16,074 bases of DNA from Oligoflexus sp. Its GTDB lineage: Bacteria > Bdellovibrionota_B > Oligoflexia > Oligoflexales > Oligoflexaceae. Positions within the stretch are counted from its first letter, which is position 1, and the number at the start of each line of letters is the position of its first letter. Position numbers and translations under genes: made by a program. Below the pieces are notes generated by a model, which searched no databases, was not told the origin of the DNA, and worked only from the letters and a program-made list of their open reading frames with translations. Shown here one piece after another: positions 4,498 through 11,925 of this stretch. Location: assembly GCA_041736305.1 (NCBI GenBank), contig JBGSTX010000059.1, forward strand, positions 1-16,074. The letters are read 5' to 3'.

Positions 4498-6396
4498 TTG
4501 GGCGTCGGTGACAAAGACGAGGAATCGCATAGTAGTCGTTATTTATTCAAGCTTAGTCTGGGCGCGCTCGGCATAGTATTTGGAGACATAGGAACCAGTC
4601 CTCTTTATGCACTACGGGAATGTTTTCACGGTCATGCGGGACTCGCGGTCACCCACGATAACATTCTCGGTATACTCTCGCTCGTCGTCTGGGCTCTTAT
4701 AATTGTCATTTCCCTCAAATACGTTCTCTATGTGATGCGAGCCGACAATCGCGGTGAAGGCGGAGTCTTAGCCCTCATGGCTCTCGCGCATCCCAAGGCT
4801 ACACCCGATCGCGGAGATCCGCGCAAGTTCCTTATCTTTATCGGTCTTTTCGGAGCGTCCCTCCTCTACGGCGACGGCGTGATCACGCCCGCAATTTCAG
4901 TTCTTTCAGCGGTTGAAGGTCTCGAAGTTGCCACGCCATTCTTCAAACCATACGTGGTGCCTATAGCCGTCGTGATACTCGTCCTTCTATTTTTACCCCA
5001 ACGTTTTGGAACGGACCGGATAGGAAAAGCTTTCGGTCCTATCATCACAGTTTGGTTTCTTACCTTGGCGGTCCTCGGTATTCGCAATATAGTCTATAAT
5101 CCTCACGTTTTTCAGGCCGTAAACCCCTACTACGCATTTCACTTTTTCATAGCCAACGGTTGGATCGGGTTTCTTGCACTAGGTACGGTATTCCTCGTGG
5201 TTACCGGCGGCGAAGCCCTCTACGCTGACATAGGACACTTTGGGCGAAAACCAATCAACTTGGCCTGGTTTTTTGTGGTTTTACCCTGTTTGCTTCTCAA
5301 TTATTTAGGTCAAGGAGCCTTGTTGCTGCGGGATCCATCTGCCGTTGAGAATCCATTTTTTCGCATGGCCCCCGCTTGGGCGACCTATCCTCTGGTGATT
5401 CTCTCGACTATGGCTGCAATAATTGCGTCGCAGGCTTTAATTTCGGGAACATACTCGCTGACGCAGCAAGCGATTCAACTGGGCTATCTACCGCGGCAAA
5501 AAATTAAGCATACCTCCAGTCACAAGATTGGTCAAATTTACGTCCCTACCGTCAACCTCATGATGCTCCTCTCTACTGTTGGTCTGGTCCTGCTTTTTCA
5601 ATCATCGAGTAATTTGGCTGCCGCCTATGGTTTGGCTGTGACGGCTACGATGGTTATTACAACCATCCTGATCTACTTTGTGGCGCGTGATCTCTGGGGC
5701 TGGCGCCCCTGGGTTGTGAGCTTGATCACTCTCGGATTCTTCGTCATCGACCTTGGCTTTTTTCTCTCAAACCTGCTTAAACTCCTGCAGGGTGGCTGGA
5801 TACCCCTCGCTCTCGGGATCGCTATTTTCACCTGCATGACGACCTGGCGAAGAGGTCGATACATTCTTGCCCAACGTCTGAAACAAAAAGCTCTGCCGGT
5901 CCAGCTATTCATCGACGAAATCGACCGCCAAGCTGTTCACCGAGTTCCGGGAACGGCAATTTTTATGACGAGTGTCCCTTCGGCAACCCCTCCTTCACTG
6001 CTTCATAATCTGAGGCATAATCACGTTCTCCATGAGCAGACGGTTCTTCTCACAGTTGTGACCGAGTCGATACCCTACGTCGCACCTGACGAGCACGTCG
6101 AAGTACGTGAGGTCTACACAGGCATCTATGCAGTCCTCATGCGCTACGGCTTTATGGAAATACCGGACGTGCCGAATTCCTTAGGGCGGAGTCTCAATCC
6201 CTATTTTGAATTTTCGCCGGAAAAGGTCACCTATTTTCTCGGTCGCGAAACGCTTATCTCAACTGAACGTCCGGGCATGGCTCGCTGGCGTGAGCGCATC
6301 TTCGCCTATATGACAAAAAACAGCCAAAAAGCGACAGACTTCTTCCAGCTGCCTGCCGATCAGGTTTTCGAAATCGGTATCGTCGTCGAACTTTGA
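4498..6396 (+). CDS. kup: Low-affinity potassium uptake transporter Kup
   Basis: LGIVFGDIGTSPLYA, RADNRGEGG, YGDGVITPAISVLSAVEG, TGGEALYADIGHFG, LAAAYGLAV, YFLGRE. TTG start with GGAGG at 4484-4488. Confidence 0.97.
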   Translation: MGVGDKDEESHSSRYLFKLSLGALGIVFGDIGTSPLYALRECFHGHAGLAVTHDNILGILSLVVWALIIVISLKYVLYVMRADNRGEGGVLALMALAHPKATPDRGDPRKFLIFIGLFGASLLYGDGVITPAISVLSAVEGLEVATPFFKPYVVPIAVVILVLLFLPQRFGTDRIGKAFGPIITVWFLTLAVLGIRNIVYNPHVFQAVNPYYAFHFFIANGWIGFLALGTVFLVVTGGEALYADIGHFGRKPINLAWFFVVLPCLLLNYLGQGALLLRDPSAVENPFFRMAPAWATYPLVILSTMAAIIASQALISGTYSLTQQAIQLGYLPRQKIKHTSSHKIGQIYVPTVNLMMLLSTVGLVLLFQSSSNLAAAYGLAVTATMVITTILIYFVARDLWGWRPWVVSLITLGFFVIDLGFFLSNLLKLLQGGWIPLALGIAIFTCMTTWRRGRYILAQRLKQKALPVQLFIDEIDRQAVHRVPGTAIFMTSVPSATPPSLLHNLRHNHVLHEQTVLLTVVTESIPYVAPDEHVEVREVYTGIYAVLMRYGFMEIPDVPNSLGRSLNPYFEFSPEKVTYFLGRETLISTERPGMARWRERIFAYMTKNSQKATDFFQLPADQVFEIGIVVEL

Positions 6397-6402
6397 TTTC
6401 TT

Positions 6403-6442
6403 GCTCGGCCAATTTTCACGAATTGGTCCGACGAGCTTCCTT
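6403..6442 (+). terminator. Possible intrinsic terminator or stem-loop after kup
   Basis: GCCAATT(6408-6414)/AATTGGT(6421-6427) stem with outer GCTCG/CGAGC pairing. The 3' tail (TTCCTT) is only weakly U-rich. Confidence 0.4.
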
Positions 6443-6476
6443 AAAGTATTTATTTTAGGCAAAGTTTTTTCCTTTC

Positions 6477-6496
6477 TTTAATCCTTCTTAATCTTT
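6477..6496 (+). promoter_or_regulatory. Tandem direct repeat TTAATC(C/T)TT with a 10-bp period upstream of the ATPase cluster; candidate transcription-factor site
   Basis: TTTAATCCTT (6477-6486) and CTTAATCTTT (6487-6496), about 60 bp upstream of the ATPase start. Confidence 0.35.
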
Positions 6497-6556
6497 CGCC
6501 ATTATGGTCCCGCAAGCGTCTGCAGCAGGCTTTGTCCAGCGGATACGGGGATAATT

Positions 6557-9500
6557 ATGAACGCCAAAAAGCAAGCGATCGAAATTTTAGAAAATGGTGA
6601 GCCAGAGTATGCCTGGGATCTTGTTCATGCGGTGCCAGGCCGAGCACGTTATAGAATTTACGCGCTCCGTCAAAATCAAGATCTGAGCGCCCGACTAGCT
6701 CTACGCATGCGACGTGAGAAAAAGGTTCTGAACGCTCAGGTGCGCTGGCAGACGGGTTCTGTCATTATTGAGCACCCGCTTGAATCGACCATTACACCCG
6801 AGGACCTGAACCTTTGGTTGAGTGAAAGCGCTGATATGGTCATCTCCAATAGCGCTGATATAGACCAGGAAAAAGTCGAAGAAAGTATTCATGCAGCAGG
6901 TGGGAGTGCGAGTTGGGCGCAGCTTGCACGGGACGAGCTGCTGAAAAAATTAGGTGTCGAAGTACTCCAAGGAGTTTTGCCGGGTGAGCTCGAGGAGCGA
7001 CGGGAGCGCTTTGGATCGAATCAAGTTGAGGAAGTGGAAAGGAGTTCGCGTTGGTTGATTTTTCAACGCCAATTTGCAAACTCACAGACCGGCCTTTTAG
7101 CGGGTGCCGCGGGCCTCTCGCTGCTCAGTGGCGGCGTTTTCGATCTCGTCATGATTGGCGGTGTCCTGGTAGCCAACGCCTATATAGGCTATCTCTCTGA
7201 GACTCATGCCGAAGAGGTCATTCATTCAATAGGCAAACTTGAGCCAAGCGAAATTCAAGTCATCCGCGCCAGCGAGCGGACTTCAATTCTAGATCATGAA
7301 TTAGTCGTCGGGGATCTCGTTTATCTCGGTAGCGGCATGGTCCCTGCGGATCTTCGTTTGATCGAAAGCAAAGGACTTATGGTCGACGAATCCCCGCTCA
7401 CGGGCGAATCGATGCCGGTCTCGAAGCATGCTGGAGCCATAGACGCGAGCCGTTTGCACACGATCAGCGATTTGAGCAATATGGTTTTCCGCGGCAGCAT
7501 CATCACCTCGGGCCAGGGTCTGGGAATAGTGGTAGCGACAGGTGAAGCCACTAAGATAGGTGAAGTTCGTCGGCTCGTGGCCAATACTCTGCAAAAAGCG
7601 TCGACGCTCGACAAAGATCTCGGAGATATTGGTAAGCAGACTATCGTCTTTTCTAGCCTGGTTTGCGGAGGGGTTTTCCTCATCGGCTTGGCGCGTGGTC
7701 ACCGCTGGCTCGACATTCTCAAAACTTCGATTTCTCTGGCAGTCGCCGCGGTTCCAGAAGGATTGCCTACCATCGGAACTACGACGATGGCGCTCGGAGT
7801 CTCAAGCCTCAAGCGGCGGAATGTTCTCGTTCGGCGATTGAACGTCATGGAAACTCTGGGCAGTGTGCAGGTCCTCTGTTTGGATAAGACCGGAACTTTG
7901 ACTCTCAACGAAATGGTGGCTTCCGAAGGGGCCTTCGGTCTTCAAGCATGGACTGCTGACAAGCTAGTCGCGAAAACCCATAAAAAAGATATGCCGCGGA
8001 CCACGGAGCAGATTACGGCCCGAACCTGGAGTATGGTCGCTTCACTCTGCAACGACTGCGAATGGCTCGCGGCGGTGAACGGCGATCCAGCTCGGTGGAG
8101 CGGATCGGCAACCGAAAAGGCCCTGATCGAGCTCGTCGTTGCGATGGGCAATGACCCTCTCGCACTCAAGACAGCCTTCCCTCGTTTCAAAGTCAGCTAC
8201 CGAACCGAAGAACGCCAGTACATGGTTACTTACCATAACCGTGCTGGATCGGATAAGAATTTTGCTGCGGTTAAAGGTAGCCCAGAGCAGCTCATTGGCA
8301 TGTGTGACTGGTACCTCGATCAGGGTGAAGTGAAACATCTCGACGACGAATCGCGGGAAAAAATCGTCAGCCAAAATCAAGCGATGGGTAAGAAGGGGCT
8401 GCGAGTCTTAGGTTTTGCTTACCTCGAAGGCGAAGCCATCCGTTCCATCCAGGATGAGAGACTCATCTGGGTAGGACTGGTCGGACTCATGGACCCCATG
8501 CGAGAAGGAATGGCTGAGCTCATCGGTCAGTTCCACCGTGCCGGGATCAAGACTATTATGATGACGGGTGATCAGACTTCCACGGCAAAAGCAGTCGGTA
8601 AAGCGCTCGGTTTCGGACGAGACGGCCAAAAAATCAAGACTGTTGATGCACGTCGCTTGCAACATCTCAGCCTCAAAGAAATTGGCGAGATCGCTGACGA
8701 TACCCAAGTCTTCTCACGGGTCAGCCCGACCGACAAGCTGCGCATCGTCCAAGCCCTCCAAGAACGAGGACTCATCGTCGCAATGACAGGCGATGGCATC
8801 AACGACAGCCCGGCCCTTAAAGCTGCCCACGTTGGCATCGCTATGGGTTTTCAAGGAACCTCAGCGGCTAGGGAATCAGCTGACATCGTTTTGAAGGATG
8901 ATAATCTGCAGATCATTTTCCATGCGATCGAACATGGCCGTGCTATCCACAGCAATCTGCGTAAATCGATTAAATACCTTCTCGCCACTAATCTTAGCGA
9001 GATTCTCCTGATGCTCGCTTCGGTCGCATCCGGTCGCGCTGCTGCGCTGAACTCCATGCAACTGCTCTGGATCAATCTCTTGAGCGACGTTCTTCCGGGC
9101 CTGGCTCTCGCTCTCGATCCACCGGCGCATGATGTGATGTACCACAATCCGCCTGATCCCCAGGCTGAGATACTGCCGCTCGAAACCAAGAAGGCACTTT
9201 TCGTCGAAGGTAGTCTCATCGCAGCTACAGCTTTCTTCGCTCATCGGCGTGAATATGATCGGGGAGATGTAGGCAGTGCCGGAACAGTAGCTTTTGTTAC
9301 GCTTACCACGTCGCAGATTTTGCATACTCTTTCCGCTTCGGCCGACCAAAACGGAATCATCCGTGGAGGCTGGCCGAAGAATAAGAGATTGTACGGAGCA
9401 ATGAGTTTGGCGGGTGGGACTTTGGCTCTAGGTACTCTTTCGCCATGGTTCCGTCAGTTGCTAGGAACTTCGCCTCTCAATCGAAAACAGTGGTTCGATG

Positions 9501-9580
9501 CCCTGCTTCAGGGTATATCGCCTCTTGTATTCAATGAAGCTCTTAGCTATTTTTCAGGTCGTGAACTGCGAACTCAGTAG
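6557..9580 (+). CDS. P2A-type (Ca2+/cation-transporting) P-type ATPase with an N-terminal HMA2-like domain
   Basis: TGES, VAAVPEGLP, CLDKTGTLT, KGSPE, MTGD, TGDGINDSPAL, TM5 ATNLSE, TM6 LLWINLLSD. The N-terminal extension LVHAVPGRARYR...TGSVIIEH has no CxxC. Confidence 0.93.
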   Translation: MNAKKQAIEILENGEPEYAWDLVHAVPGRARYRIYALRQNQDLSARLALRMRREKKVLNAQVRWQTGSVIIEHPLESTITPEDLNLWLSESADMVISNSADIDQEKVEESIHAAGGSASWAQLARDELLKKLGVEVLQGVLPGELEERRERFGSNQVEEVERSSRWLIFQRQFANSQTGLLAGAAGLSLLSGGVFDLVMIGGVLVANAYIGYLSETHAEEVIHSIGKLEPSEIQVIRASERTSILDHELVVGDLVYLGSGMVPADLRLIESKGLMVDESPLTGESMPVSKHAGAIDASRLHTISDLSNMVFRGSIITSGQGLGIVVATGEATKIGEVRRLVANTLQKASTLDKDLGDIGKQTIVFSSLVCGGVFLIGLARGHRWLDILKTSISLAVAAVPEGLPTIGTTTMALGVSSLKRRNVLVRRLNVMETLGSVQVLCLDKTGTLTLNEMVASEGAFGLQAWTADKLVAKTHKKDMPRTTEQITARTWSMVASLCNDCEWLAAVNGDPARWSGSATEKALIELVVAMGNDPLALKTAFPRFKVSYRTEERQYMVTYHNRAGSDKNFAAVKGSPEQLIGMCDWYLDQGEVKHLDDESREKIVSQNQAMGKKGLRVLGFAYLEGEAIRSIQDERLIWVGLVGLMDPMREGMAELIGQFHRAGIKTIMMTGDQTSTAKAVGKALGFGRDGQKIKTVDARRLQHLSLKEIGEIADDTQVFSRVSPTDKLRIVQALQERGLIVAMTGDGINDSPALKAAHVGIAMGFQGTSAARESADIVLKDDNLQIIFHAIEHGRAIHSNLRKSIKYLLATNLSEILLMLASVASGRAAALNSMQLLWINLLSDVLPGLALALDPPAHDVMYHNPPDPQAEILPLETKKALFVEGSLIAATAFFAHRREYDRGDVGSAGTVAFVTLTTSQILHTLSASADQNGIIRGGWPKNKRLYGAMSLAGGTLALGTLSPWFRQLLGTSPLNRKQWFDALLQGISPLVFNEALSYFSGRELRTQ

Positions 9581-9602
9581 CTCGTAAGAAAGGCAAGATG
9601 TC

Positions 9603-9899
9603 ATGTTCAAATCTTCCCGTTTTAGCTCAGGATTTCTACTAGGTTTTGGTGCAGGATTCGTATCCCGCGATTTGATGTCGACAAATAACAGCATGATGCG
9701 TCCTGTGGTTAAGGGATTTATCCGAGCTGGGACCACTCTTATTGAAAAAAGTAGAGAATCGGTTGCTCACATGTTCGAGACTCTCGAAGATTTGCTGGCC
9801 GAAGTAAGGTCTGAGAAAGAGAAGCCGACCGCCCCCGCTGAGCCAGTCGTGGCTCAAGCAAAGACGCACGTAAAAGTTAACGTCAGCAAAACTTCTTAA
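9603..9899 (+). CDS. DUF5132-like small membrane-anchored protein
   Basis: Gly-rich hydrophobic N-terminus (GFLLGFGAG), then RPVVKGFIRAG..LIEKSRESVAHMFETLEDLLAEVRSE, which resembles the DUF5132 consensus as remembered. Ala/Pro/Lys-rich tail. Confidence 0.7.
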   Translation: MFKSSRFSSGFLLGFGAGFVSRDLMSTNNSMMRPVVKGFIRAGTTLIEKSRESVAHMFETLEDLLAEVRSEKEKPTAPAEPVVAQAKTHVKVNVSKTS

Positions 9900-9911
9900 G
9901 GGGCTTCTCCA

Positions 9912-10424
9912 ATGTCTTACACCGCGAGAGTTGTCCATAGGACACCAGGTCGCCTTCGCCTGCAAATGGAAGGGAGCGATCTCACAGATACGGCGCTTCG
10001 GGAGACCATGGTTCAGCTGCAAAGCTATTCTATGTCTCAGCGAGTCAAAGGTAATCTCTTGACTCGCACGATCGTACTAGAGAGTGATAGTGATGGTTCG
10101 TTAGAGAAAGTCCTGGATCAGGCAAGTGAAGCTGGTGTTTTGGAAATAGGGCCGCAGATGCCACTCGCACAGGAAGCCCGGACTCCTTCTATCCGCGATC
10201 TCGTCATCTCATTTCGTGAAAAATGCGACAGCTTTCTGAAAGAAGTTAGTGGCAATTCTCTCGATCTGAAGTCGGCCACAGCGTGGACGCTGGCGGGTTT
10301 AGGGGTCAAGCAGAGTCTATCAGGGAAGTTTCTGCCAGCGGGCATGACGCTGGTGATTTATGCTATGGGCATGCTTCAATTAGATGAGATGGATAAGATT
10401 AAAAAAGAGCAAGCTGAAGCCTGA
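9912..10424 (+). CDS. HMA2-like domain protein with a C-terminal hydrophobic segment
   Basis: N-terminal VVHRTPGRLRL...VKGNLLTRTIVL. C-terminal DLKSATAWTLAGLGVKQSLSGKFLPAGMTLVIYAMGML is a likely membrane hairpin. Confidence 0.75.
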   Translation: MSYTARVVHRTPGRLRLQMEGSDLTDTALRETMVQLQSYSMSQRVKGNLLTRTIVLESDSDGSLEKVLDQASEAGVLEIGPQMPLAQEARTPSIRDLVISFREKCDSFLKEVSGNSLDLKSATAWTLAGLGVKQSLSGKFLPAGMTLVIYAMGMLQLDEMDKIKKEQAEA

Positions 10425-10435
10425 TTTTTTTTATA

Positions 10436-10494
10436 CCGATTTAGTCCCCTATGGCTTATAATAAGTATAAGCCAACAAACGGGGAATAAATTGG
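10436..10494 (+). promoter_or_regulatory. Extended stem-loop/palindrome overlapping a TATAAT box and the RBS and TTG start of the downstream gene
   Basis: Perfect 9-bp IR TGGCTTATA(10452-10460)/TATAAGCCA(10466-10474). Outer arm CCGATTTAGTCCCC(10436-10449) pairs with GGGGAATAAATTGG(10481-10494), with one mismatch and one G-U. TATAAT at 10457-10462. Confidence 0.6.
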
Positions 10495-10940
10495 ACTGCT
10501 TTATCCATCAGAGCTATGGTCGAGTTCGCATCCGTGTGCCAGCACTTAAAGATGCAACTCAGCGGACCCAAGCGCTTATGAAAGCGCTGAGTGATTTGAA
10601 GGGCGTTCGGAAAATAACGATTAGCGAAATCACAGGCAGCGTCGTCATCCACTATGATCCCTCGCGACAACAGGTAGCCTCGATACTGAAAATATTTCAT
10701 TCCCAGCGGCTTCTGATGAATGTCGTCGGGTTTCCACGGAGTTCGCATCTCTTTCCACTGAGTAAACCTCAGGCGAGACCGCTCCAGCAAGGCGAGGAAA
10801 AAGCGCAGAATCAGCCACTCCCCATGGATGCCTGGCTAAGCGCTGCCGTCCAGCAAGCAGGAAGAGTCATATTTATGAACCTCGTTGAAGCAGCCTTTCA
10901 AAAGACGGGTCGCTTGCTCCTCCGACGGATGTTCAGCTAA
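10491..10940 (+). CDS. Stand-alone HMA2-like domain protein
   Basis: FIHQSYGRVRIRVPALK...LKGVRKITISEITGSVVIHYDP, with an amphipathic C-terminal helix. TTG start with GGGGA upstream. Overlaps the 3' end of the convergent GT2 gene by 8 bp. Confidence 0.75.
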   Translation: MDCFIHQSYGRVRIRVPALKDATQRTQALMKALSDLKGVRKITISEITGSVVIHYDPSRQQVASILKIFHSQRLLMNVVGFPRSSHLFPLSKPQARPLQQGEEKAQNQPLPMDAWLSAAVQQAGRVIFMNLVEAAFQKTGRLLLRRMFS

Positions 10941-11925
10941 GGCCAAGCGGCTTAGGTTCAGGCTCTGAATTATCCCTTCCAACAATGGCACTGACAAGAT
11001 AGAGGGGGCGATCTCGAACTTCGTCGTAGACGCGGGCGAGATACTCCCCTAAGACCCCCAGCATCAGCATATGCATGCCGCCAATAAATGTGATAATAAC
11101 GAAAAGTGAAGTCCATCCCCACACGAAAGAGCCGACATGGCCGAGCCGTGCAATGATCGCTGCTATTCCGAGTAGCAAAGAGCCCACAGCCATCAGCAGA
11201 CCCATTCCCATGCAAAGTCGGAGCGGCAAATTTGAAAAGCTGACGATAGCATCGAAAGCTAGCTTAAGCATTTTTAAGAAAGGGTATTTGGTTTCGCCGG
11301 CGAAGCGTGCTTCGCGATCGTAGTAGACTTCGGTCTGTTTGAAACCTAGCCACGAAAAAAGACCACGGATATATCGATTTCTCTCGCGCAGACGTCGAAA
11401 GGCGCGCAGTACTTTGCGATCGATAAGACGGAAATCTGCAGAATTTACTGGAGCCCGGATGTCAGCGAAGCGGCTTAGAATATGGTAAAAGCTGAGAGCC
11501 GTATACTTTTTGAAGGCAGTATCGACTTCGCGACTCCGTCGCACAGCATAGATCAGCTCGTATCCTTCGCGCCACTTCTGAGCCATTTCCACGATCACTT
11601 CGGGAGGATCCTGAAGGTCGGCATCCATAGTGATAGTCGCCTGGCCTCTCGCATAATCGCAACCCGCCGTCAGAGCCATCTGGTGGCCGAAGTTTCTTGA
11701 GAGGCGCAGGGCCTGGAAACGCCCGTCGCGGCGACAGAGATCTTCCATCAGCTCAAAGCTGCGATCCCGGCTACCATCGTCCACGAGTATGACTTCAGCA
11801 GCTGCATCGAGCTTTTCCATGACCCCGTGAAGGCGCCGATAAAGCTCCTCAAGTCCGCTCTCTTCGTTATAGACAGGAACTACAATGGAATAGACAGGAG
11901 ACGAGCCCTTGGGCAATGACTGCAT
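10933..11925 (-). CDS. Family 2 polyprenyl-phosphate glycosyltransferase (GtrB/ArnC/YkoT-like)
   Basis: SIVVPVYNEE, VDDGSRD, LSRNFGHQ.A..AG, MDADLQDPPE, DFRLIDR, R.AGETKY, two C-terminal TM helices, LGEYLARVY.EV..RP.Y. Confidence 0.93.
   Translation of the reverse strand: MQSLPKGSSPVYSIVVPVYNEESGLEELYRRLHGVMEKLDAAAEVILVDDGSRDRSFELMEDLCRRDGRFQALRLSRNFGHQMALTAGCDYARGQATITMDADLQDPPEVIVEMAQKWREGYELIYAVRRSREVDTAFKKYTALSFYHILSRFADIRAPVNSADFRLIDRKVLRAFRRLRERNRYIRGLFSWLGFKQTEVYYDREARFAGETKYPFLKMLKLAFDAIVSFSNLPLRLCMGMGLLMAVGSLLLGIAAIIARLGHVGSFVWGWTSLFVIITFIGGMHMLMLGVLGEYLARVYDEVRDRPLYLVSAIVGRDNSEPEPKPLGLS

Follow-up and report, generated by a model that had tools for sequence, protein, structure and literature searches.

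The window analysed here is a 16,074-nucleotide stretch of an Oligoflexus sp. genome, and its subject is a four-gene operon that encodes a P2-type cation ATPase, a small DUF5132 protein and two proteins of the HMA_2 family (Table 1). An earlier note, made from the letters of the sequence, had described four same-strand, tightly packed genes and had likened the genes around the ATPase to the accessory set of the ferrosome. The open reading frame listing and the translations confirm the coordinates and the gaps of 22, 12 and 66 bp. The PEGL and DKTGT motifs on which the ATPase had been recognised are found in its translation as AVPEGLP and CLDKTGT, and the small protein suspected to be DUF5132-like matches Pfam DUF5132 (PF17195) at 36 bits (cut-off 25). 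The H-x3-GRxR module that the note had seen in both remaining small proteins and in the ATPase is present in all three, as H24..G28 R29 A R31 in the ATPase, H9..G13 R14 L R16 in P0003 and H6..G10 R11 V R13 in P0004. Pfam profiles HMA_2, DUF5132, Cation_ATPase_N and Cation_ATPase_C were all matched, the HMA_2 copy of the ATPase falling below the cut-off. In every detail that could be checked, the observation was correct.

Table 1. Features of the four-gene cassette, in positions of the window
Feature	Position	Strand	Length	Basis or remarks
P2-type (SERCA/PMR1-like) cation ATPase with N-terminal CoBaHMA extension	6557-9580	+	1007 aa	Pfam, motifs
N-terminal CoBaHMA (HMA_2) domain of the ATPase, residues ~22-80, H24/R29/R31	6620-6799	+		Pfam
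P0002, DUF5132 protein	9603-9899	+	98 aa	Gly-rich hydrophobic helix, long acidic helix, disordered tail
P0003, CoBaHMA (HMA_2) protein	9912-10424	+	170 aa	three C-terminal helices, the last hydrophobic (138-157)
P0004, CoBaHMA (HMA_2) protein	10491-10940	+	149 aa, TTG start	C-terminal helix region conserved

The HMA_2 family (PF19991) is the CoBaHMA domain, a connection that the earlier note did not make. The literature traces the domain to calcyanin and characterises it by an additional strand, β0, together with a conserved His and basic residues. The assembly that contains the window (5.02 Mb in 392 contigs, 92.7% complete), searched in six frames, returned three HMA_2 matches and one DUF5132 match in total, all inside this 4.4-kb operon. 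Because the sole matches of the genome cluster here, and because the gene order is kept in relatives (see below), the grouping goes beyond chance.

The pump and its partner proteins

The ATPase carries the Pfam domains E1-E2_ATPase, Cation_ATPase_N (45.7 bits), Cation_ATPase_C (108.3 bits), Cation_ATPase and Hydrolase, the N and C domains scoring over their cut-offs. These matches, the PEGL motif and a sequence without the D[YF]SCA/HNxxT signature of the ferrosome pump FezB agree with the P2 class proposed in the earlier note. The closest solved structures are SPCA1 (8iwp, 2.5e-118), LMCA1 (6zhf, 1e-113) and SERCA1a (~1e-104), and the top NCBIfam models are the PMR1-type TIGR01522 (536 bits) and the SERCA-type TIGR01116 (450.9 bits). 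The window pump thus has in common with the P2A Ca2+-ATPases (SERCA, SPCA1/PMR1, LMCA1) the DKTGT and PEGL motifs and, by the mapping given below, the putative ion ligands of M4, M5 and M6. It differs from them in an added N-terminal CoBaHMA domain of ~110 residues, a Gln in M8, obligate partner-gene neighbours and NCBIfam scores under the cut-offs.

The candidate ion-site residues are E401, N812, E815, N840, S843, D844 and Q920, all conserved in the clade of kit-linked pumps described below. They were mapped through the SPCA1 alignment to SERCA numbering, in which we take them to be E309, N768, E771, N796, T799, D800 and E908, respectively. Six of the seven Ca2+-site positions in M4, M5, M6 and M8 are identical or conservative with respect to SERCA, the seventh being the M8 position, where the window pump has Q and not E. 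Across 52 pumps of the kit clade the first six positions hold E in 50/52, N in 49/49, E in 49/49, N in 49/49, S or T in 49/49 and D in 49/49, and D443 is present in 52/52 rows. The two M5 positions are S and A in SPCA1, so that the window pump would retain SERCA ‘site I’ ligands that are missing in SPCA1. Judging by its sequence, the pump would most likely export Ca2+, or a similar divalent cation, from the cytoplasm.

In a tree of 97 ATPases all 52 kit-linked P2 pumps form a single clade with Shimodaira–Hasegawa-like support of 100, and none of the 13 kit-less P2 paralogues from Oligoflexales genomes belongs to it; pumps with the FezB signature cluster with cyanobacterial P1B-like pumps (support 93). 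The tree was built with FastTree only, has flagged long branches, contains no named references and retains six of the 22 cyanobacterial rows with the DFATG motif.

Both small CoBaHMA proteins pass the HMA_2 cut-off of 30 bits, P0003 at 42.2 bits over profile positions 8-152 of 154 and P0004 at 41.3 bits over residues 6-59. The AlphaFold2 model of P0003 (predicted local distance difference test score, pLDDT, 87.6) has the order β0-β1-α1-β2-β3-α2-β4, with strands at 3-11, 14-20, 44-48, 53-57 and 77-79 and helices at 26-39 and 61-73. This is a ferredoxin-like fold extended by β0, and it is followed by helices at 94-112, 119-136 and 142-169. A Foldseek comparison of the model with the PDB gave no match at E <= 0.001, and HMA domains appeared weakly (2xmw at rank 24, 1mwy at rank 50). 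P0003 thus has, in the model, the β0 strand of the CoBaHMA family. The conserved His and the basic residues of the family are present in all three window proteins, and the residues of the module are strongly kept: R14 and R16 of P0003 are invariant in 71 sequences, I5, H6, Q7, G10, R11 and R13 of P0004 are invariant in 10 orthologues, and in 37 kit-linked pumps R31 is invariant with H24 and R29 at least 90% conserved. P0004 carries 12 net positive charges (+12) and lacks any strongly hydrophobic stretch.

The DUF5132 protein P0002 has a sole hydrophobic stretch at residues 7-21, FSSGFLLGFGAGFVS. Its AlphaFold2 model (mean pLDDT 73.3) consists of helices at 6-26 and 32-72 followed by a disordered tail. 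The DUF5132 domain is found by Pfam in 72/72 aligned relatives, among which P34, E59, E62, D63, A66 and E67 show no variation; conservation at G10, G14 and E71 is 90% or higher. A complex prediction for P0003 with P0002 scored 0.02, a value that counts neither for nor against binding.

HMA-like proteins beside a cation pump could be metallochaperones that bind the transported metal and pass it on. P0004 has a weak match to HMA itself (PF00403, 22 bits) and weak matches to NCBIfam models of the CopZ/MerP type, and PacL1, a mycobacterial pump partner, carries a metal-binding tail according to its preprint (10.1101/2021.10.01.462712). Against this reading, a CxxC motif occurs in none of the three HMA_2 copies, the first 120 residues of the ATPase are without Cys, P0003 and P0004 have one Cys each, and the tail of P0002 has no His/Asp-rich motif. 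Nor are P2-class Ca2+ pumps known to rely on chaperones. We regard a metallochaperone role as very improbable.

Relation to the ferrosome kit and distribution of the cassette

The ferrosome preprint describes FezB as a P1B-6 ATPase with D[Y/F]SCA in M4 and HNxxT in M6. FezB and related P1B pumps, CtpC among them, have an R-rich motif at the N-terminus according to the preprint, which reports the motif for further proteins of the clusters as well, for instance FezC (annotated as HMA), and places small GxxxG membrane proteins such as FezA in fez clusters. The statements of the earlier note on fez and mycobacterial clusters match the accessible parts of these sources. For comparison we assembled 20 Desulfobacterota regions in which a frame of 700-800 aa begins with an HMA_2 match. 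The exact FezB signature is present in the pumps of six of these regions, and other pumps have variants such as DYSCV and DFGCA. The N-termini of FezB-signature pumps score 22.8 and 26.6 bits on HMA_2, under the cut-off, and a downstream HMA_2 protein in three of the loci scores 43.8-47.3 bits. Upstream, four of the six loci have a small Gly-rich protein with a Pfam match to DUF6110 at 22.4-28.6 bits. Because three of these four FezA-like proteins are near-identical, they represent two lineages.

Profile comparison by hhalign aligned the DUF5132 family with the four FezA-like proteins at 95.3% (E 2.2e-8, 84 columns), and a deeper DUF5132 alignment gave 92.7% (E 4.2e-7), scores to be read against a template of four sequences from two lineages and against the inflation that hydrophobic and charged-helix composition can cause. 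An HMA_2 family, as a control, reached 0.09% on the same template. DUF5132 and FezA-like proteins show the same pattern, in which a Gly-rich hydrophobic helix and a [KR]-P turn are followed by a helix with E-D-L-x-A-E-x-R at its end. From the FezB-locus matches and the hhalign result we infer that the ‘R-rich motif’ of fez clusters corresponds to CoBaHMA, and that the DUF5132 protein is a distant FezA-type protein. Judged from sequence, the accessory kit is homologous to the ferrosome kit, and what differs is the class of pump. The note's claim of a ferrosome-like kit is thereby strengthened from a likeness in outline to homology, and its claim that the kit here serves a SERCA-like pump is supported by the P2 domains and by the presence of the same kit beside P2 and P1B pumps.

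Ferrosome clusters and the window thus both have a small Gly-rich membrane protein with an acidic helix, free HMA_2 proteins and a pump with an HMA_2-type N-terminus. Unlike the P1B-6 pump of the ferrosome, the window pump is P2-type, with PEGL and SERCA-like oxygen ligands, and the small protein is DUF5132 and not DUF6110. No Feo or Fur genes adjoin the cassette, and granules like those of ferrosomes are not known for it.

Of 40 related genomes, 13 have a gene that matches the pump at orthologue level (E <= 1e-160, 37-65% identity): 8/13 of the same genus, 3/8 of other genera of the family and 2/19 of other families of the order. The related loci come from Oligoflexus tunisiensis, Oligoflexus sp., Oligoflexaceae and uncultured Oligoflexales. 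The order ATPase, DUF5132, hairpin-type HMA_2, second-type HMA_2 is kept in 9/12 related Oligoflexales loci, and two more stop at a contig edge just past DUF5132. The remaining one (L023/L031, on the same contig) has an S-adenosylmethionine (SAM) synthetase gene between ATPase and DUF5132 and no fourth gene in the remaining 1.6 kb. One genome of the same genus (G009) holds three ATPase-DUF5132 cassettes on three contigs (L002, L016, L025), with pumps 58-65% identical to that of the window.

A wider survey compared the DUF5132 alignment with one genome per GTDB species and took the best 80 loci, a choice biased to relatives of the query; their open reading frames were scored with hidden Markov models built from the Oligoflexales alignments. 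A P2-type ATPase accompanies DUF5132 in 46 of these loci and a FezB-like P1B ATPase in 24, the other 10 having no ATPase in view. A hairpin-type HMA_2 gene lies directly 3' of DUF5132 in 73/80 loci, and a P0004-type gene is present in 25 of the 46 P2-type loci. By Pfam, the kit-linked ATPases have Cation_ATPase_N and Cation_ATPase_C in 37/37 and HMA_2 in 33/37 cases (HMA_2 at E <= 0.01), and the hairpin-type partner proteins have HMA_2 in 71/71. The neighbourhood of P2A pump, DUF5132 and HMA_2 that the note had singled out is thus a recurrent arrangement, within the Oligoflexales and beyond.

Counted by record titles, the 46 P2 loci fall into eight phyla in total: Pseudomonadota (17), Thermodesulfobacteriota (10), Bdellovibrionota (9), Acidobacteriota (3) and one each in Actinomycetota, Cyanobacteriota, Myxococcota and Nitrospirota, with three unplaced. 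In a Desulfobacterota sample 53 of 301 genomes have an HMA_2 match, and in 25 of them such a match opens a frame of at least 1000 aa, the size of the P2 fusion. Both regions fetched with such a frame (L120, L131) encode PEGL pumps with the kit adjoining. In five genomes with the P2 cassette no D[YF]SCA-type ATPase appeared among their 12 best matches.

Three Desulfobacterota loci have CPC-type P1B ATPases with an N-terminal H..GRxR/HMA_2 a few kb from the P2 cassette (L120:8021-10279, L091:12887-15190, L131:6033-8243). This proximity would suggest that one kit may serve two pumps, as reported for PacL. All 24 P1B-type DUF5132 loci (L041-L096; for instance L084:5594-7828) belong to heterocystous or other filamentous cyanobacteria and encode an ATPase of ~750 aa. 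These P1B-like pumps have LDFATG in M4 and NNGST in M6 in place of the D[YF]SCA and HNxxT of FezB, which means that the FezB Cys and His are missing there. Upstream of the cyanobacterial ATPase lie genes for proteins of 350-490 aa, and both of those scanned (L084) hold two or three HMA_2 stretches.

Scaffold, organelle or lipid sensor

The closest experimental precedent for the small membrane protein comes from the PacL family. According to the PacL1 preprint (10.1101/2021.10.01.462712), PacL1 (DUF1490) acts in membrane microdomains, where it stabilises CtpC as both scaffold and chaperone, and DUF1490 is related to DUF6110, whose genes adjoin P1B-6 pumps. The homology of DUF5132 with DUF1490 is therefore a chain, its DUF5132-DUF6110 link compared here and its DUF6110-DUF1490 link taken from that preprint. 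A 2026 EMBO J paper adds that (i) PacL proteins self-associate through a transmembrane GxxG motif; (ii) PacL2 binds the N-terminal domain of CtpG in a split-GFP assay; (iii) with E55, E59 and E71 of PacL2 replaced by Ala, binding is weaker and the pump less stable. On this account PacL scaffolds bind the N-termini of pumps by way of acidic helices. The PacL/P1B-ATPase ‘effluxosomes’ and the window have in common a small ATPase-adjacent gene whose product combines a Gly-motif helix at the N-terminus with an acidic cytoplasmic helix rich in Ala and Glu and with a disordered tail, and an ATPase is in view in 70 of the 80 surveyed DUF5132 loci, as for PacL-type genes next to P-type ATPases. The PacL mechanism, an acidic helix binding the N-terminal domain of the pump, fits the residues conserved in the window proteins. 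The window differs from PacL systems in that P0002 has no DUF1490 match or C-terminal metal-binding motif, the pump is P2-type and two extra CoBaHMA proteins are present.

We propose, as the somewhat probable function of this conserved four-gene operon, that a SERCA-like (P2A-like), Ca2+-type pump is clustered or stabilised in the membrane by a scaffold of the PacL/FezA type. The DUF5132 protein would insert into the membrane by its Gly-zipper helix (residues 6-26) and self-associate through the same helix, and its acidic helix (E59, E62, D63, E67, E71) would bind the His/Arg face of CoBaHMA domains. One such partner would be the N-terminal CoBaHMA domain fused to the pump, which would thereby be stabilised, clustered or regulated. 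The free CoBaHMA proteins have the same His/Arg face together with a hydrophobic or amphipathic C-terminal helix and, on the cytoplasmic side of the membrane, might either join the scaffold or compete on it, while the pump would carry its cation out of the cytoplasm. The conserved acidic helix, the His/Arg faces and the PacL layout suggest the docking of the DUF5132 helix on CoBaHMA domains, including that of the pump, and the Gly-zipper would drive the clustering. Binding, clustering, the substrate and the membrane involved are all conjectural steps of this proposal.

Gene fusion offers a further indication. In Chlorogloeopsis fritschii PCC 6912 a 190-aa protein (L045:6491-7063) joins DUF5132 (residues 37-80) to positions 89-152 of the HMA_2 profile, the C-terminal helix part. 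It is a natural fusion of two adjacent kit gene products and counts as support for the scaffold proposal.

Several points weigh against the proposal. P0002 has no match to DUF1490 or DUF6110, its only Pfam matches at E <= 1 being DUF5132 and a weak DUF3213, and just one of the four FezA-like proteins passes the DUF6110 cut-off of 26 bits; the small template of the hhalign comparison belongs here too. The pump lies under every NCBIfam equivalog cut-off (536 against 798.3 bits for TIGR01522, 450.9 against 703.4 for TIGR01116), and its HMA_2 match over residues 22-80 stays below 30 bits, at 24.8 when the protein is searched and at 27.7 with six-frame translation. The M8 Gln stands at the SERCA E908 position in 44/47 rows of the kit clade, and since 10 of the 13 kit-less paralogues also have it, it is no marker of that clade. 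The N-terminal ‘metal-binding domains’ to which mycobacterial PacL proteins bind may not be CoBaHMA domains, and in the published CoBaHMA hypothesis the basic patch has anionic lipids for a partner and no protein helix. Finally, the cassette is known here from genes, sequence comparison and models.

The same kit could instead belong to an organelle. The four proteins would then build and fill an intracellular, lipid-bounded cation store, a calcium (or alkaline-earth) counterpart of the ferrosome. In this store the P2 pump would load the lumen, and shaping or marking the membrane would fall to the DUF5132 protein and the membrane-tethered CoBaHMA proteins. The homology with the fez kit speaks for this, as FezA, FezB and FezC are enriched with isolated ferrosomes and deletion of fezBC abolishes them, according to the ferrosome preprint. 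Hydrophobic hairpin-like and amphipathic C-termini would also suit membrane shaping. A calcium context exists as well: the CoBaHMA domain has been tied to intracellular Ca-carbonate biomineralisation, and according to a Microcystis preprint ccyA and a Ca2+/H+ exchanger gene have as neighbours two DUF5132 genes, one gene for a CoBaHMA-DUF454 protein and one for a CoBaHMA protein, several of which are co-expressed with ccyA, in an organism whose Ca-carbonate forms inside a compartment. The kit thus has a published Ca2+ context besides its iron and zinc/cadmium contexts. The ccyA neighbourhood of Ca-carbonate-forming cyanobacteria and the window have the same pairing of DUF5132 and CoBaHMA genes, which in Microcystis lies beside a Ca2+ transporter; in the window the candidate Ca-type transporter is a P2 ATPase fused to CoBaHMA and not a CAX exchanger, and the host is a member of the Oligoflexaceae and not a cyanobacterium.

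Other observations argue against a storage compartment. PacL proteins, which belong to the same superfamily, have the plasma membrane and not an organelle as their place of action, and Pfam searches of the 10 open reading frames flanking the cassette in the window found no carbonate, phosphate or exchanger gene and no Feo or Fur gene; Kup, a flanking gene considered below, is not kept beside the cassette. No report of Oligoflexus inclusions was met in the literature consulted. Because the homologues split between the plasma membrane (PacL) and an organelle (Fez), and sequence does not decide between them, we rank scaffold and pump first and hold the organelle, in second place, to be unlikely.

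Lipids offer a further alternative. CoBaHMA domains might bind anionic lipids, which would make the N-terminal domain of the pump a lipid-gated regulator, and the free CoBaHMA proteins and DUF5132 would act on membrane composition without binding the pump. A regulatory role of CoBaHMA, possibly through anionic lipids, is hypothesised in a preprint, and the His and Arg residues conserved in all three proteins and the strong positive charge of P0004 would accord with it. It leaves the near-obligate pairing with DUF5132 and the invariant acidic helix unexplained, and the PacL experiments provide a precedent for an acidic helix that binds the pump N-terminal domain. We consider a lipid sensor doubtful and place it after the organelle.

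The cassette is real, widespread and uncharacterised, and it joins three known systems around a different pump class. Three literatures, those of FezA/FezB/FezC, of PacL with CtpC, CtpG and CtpV, and of CoBaHMA and calcyanin, each cover part of one partner kit of P-type ATPases. In the literature searched, the kit accompanies P1B heavy-metal pumps or a CAX exchanger and not P2 pumps, although P2-type or DUF5132 cases may stand in supplementary tables of the ferrosome and PacL publications, and DUF5132 turned up only in the Microcystis preprint. The accessible text of the EMBO J PacL paper does not use the word ‘ferrosome’, and a 2026 PacL review uses neither ‘ferrosome’ nor ‘DUF5132’. Gaschignard et al. 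2024 reportedly place CoBaHMA in membrane transport proteins, and they may list fusions to P-type ATPases, P2-type ones included, or DUF5132 neighbours. With the ATPase of Chlorogloeopsis as tblastn query against plasmids, only Microvirga sp. VF16 spans the N-terminal domain among the 25 matches listed, and the ccyA region of Fischerella NIES-4106 is not among them.

The linkage of the kit to a monophyletic SERCA-like P2 lineage in many phyla suggests a general pump-organising module, whatever cation is moved. The cassette would be a tractable system in which to ask what decides between a plasma-membrane platform and an organelle, and a relative of the locus is found in Oligoflexus tunisiensis strain Shr3. 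If the organelle were real, the presence of the cassette in at least eight phyla would mean that such stores are widespread and have so far gone unnoticed, and they would provide a transporter-level mechanism for bacterial intracellular Ca biomineralisation.

Flanks of the operon and recurrent neighbours

Upstream of the operon lie genes with Pfam matches to MoeA, ExbB, TonB and Kup, and downstream are a convergent GT2 glycosyltransferase gene, a PMT_2 protein and a soluble pyrophosphatase. The Kup gene (4498-6396) was considered as a member of the operon and rejected, a homologue being found in just one related locus, 3.3 kb from the ATPase. Right after the Kup stop is an inverted repeat, GGCCAATT..AATTGGTCC at 6408-6430, and the sequence is AT-rich from there to the ATPase start. 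The repeat may end the Kup transcript and so give the ATPase operon its own promoter. A consensus promoter and terminator scan of 6300-11100 gave nothing usable above shuffled background and no promoter in the 6408-6430 region, and an Rfam scan of the window and eight orthologous loci found tRNAs only and no riboswitch. The last 8 bp of the fourth gene (10933-10940) also belong to the GT2 gene (10933-11925, minus strand), which leaves no space for a terminator between the two.

Beyond the kit itself, other genes recur in the P2 loci of the survey. In 16 of the 46 P2 loci the gene directly after that of the kit-linked P2 ATPase encodes a full-length SAM synthetase (MetK), often with stop and start overlapping by 4 nt (L031:2814-4013, L081:12597-13787, L069:5622-6815, L071:5377-6582, L045:2043-3227, L102:6828-8084 and 10 more loci). 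The loci that carry it come from Oligoflexales, Chlorogloeopsis, Nitrospirota, Nitrosomonas, Desulfomonile and gammaproteobacterial metagenome-assembled genomes; the window is without MetK. DUF445 membrane proteins are encoded in eight P2 loci (for example L063:6607-7839). A protein of ~238 aa that has no Pfam match is encoded in 10 P2 loci (for example L073:8920-9633) and, where examined (for example L073, L081 and L044), its gene lies between the hairpin-type HMA_2 gene and the ATPase.

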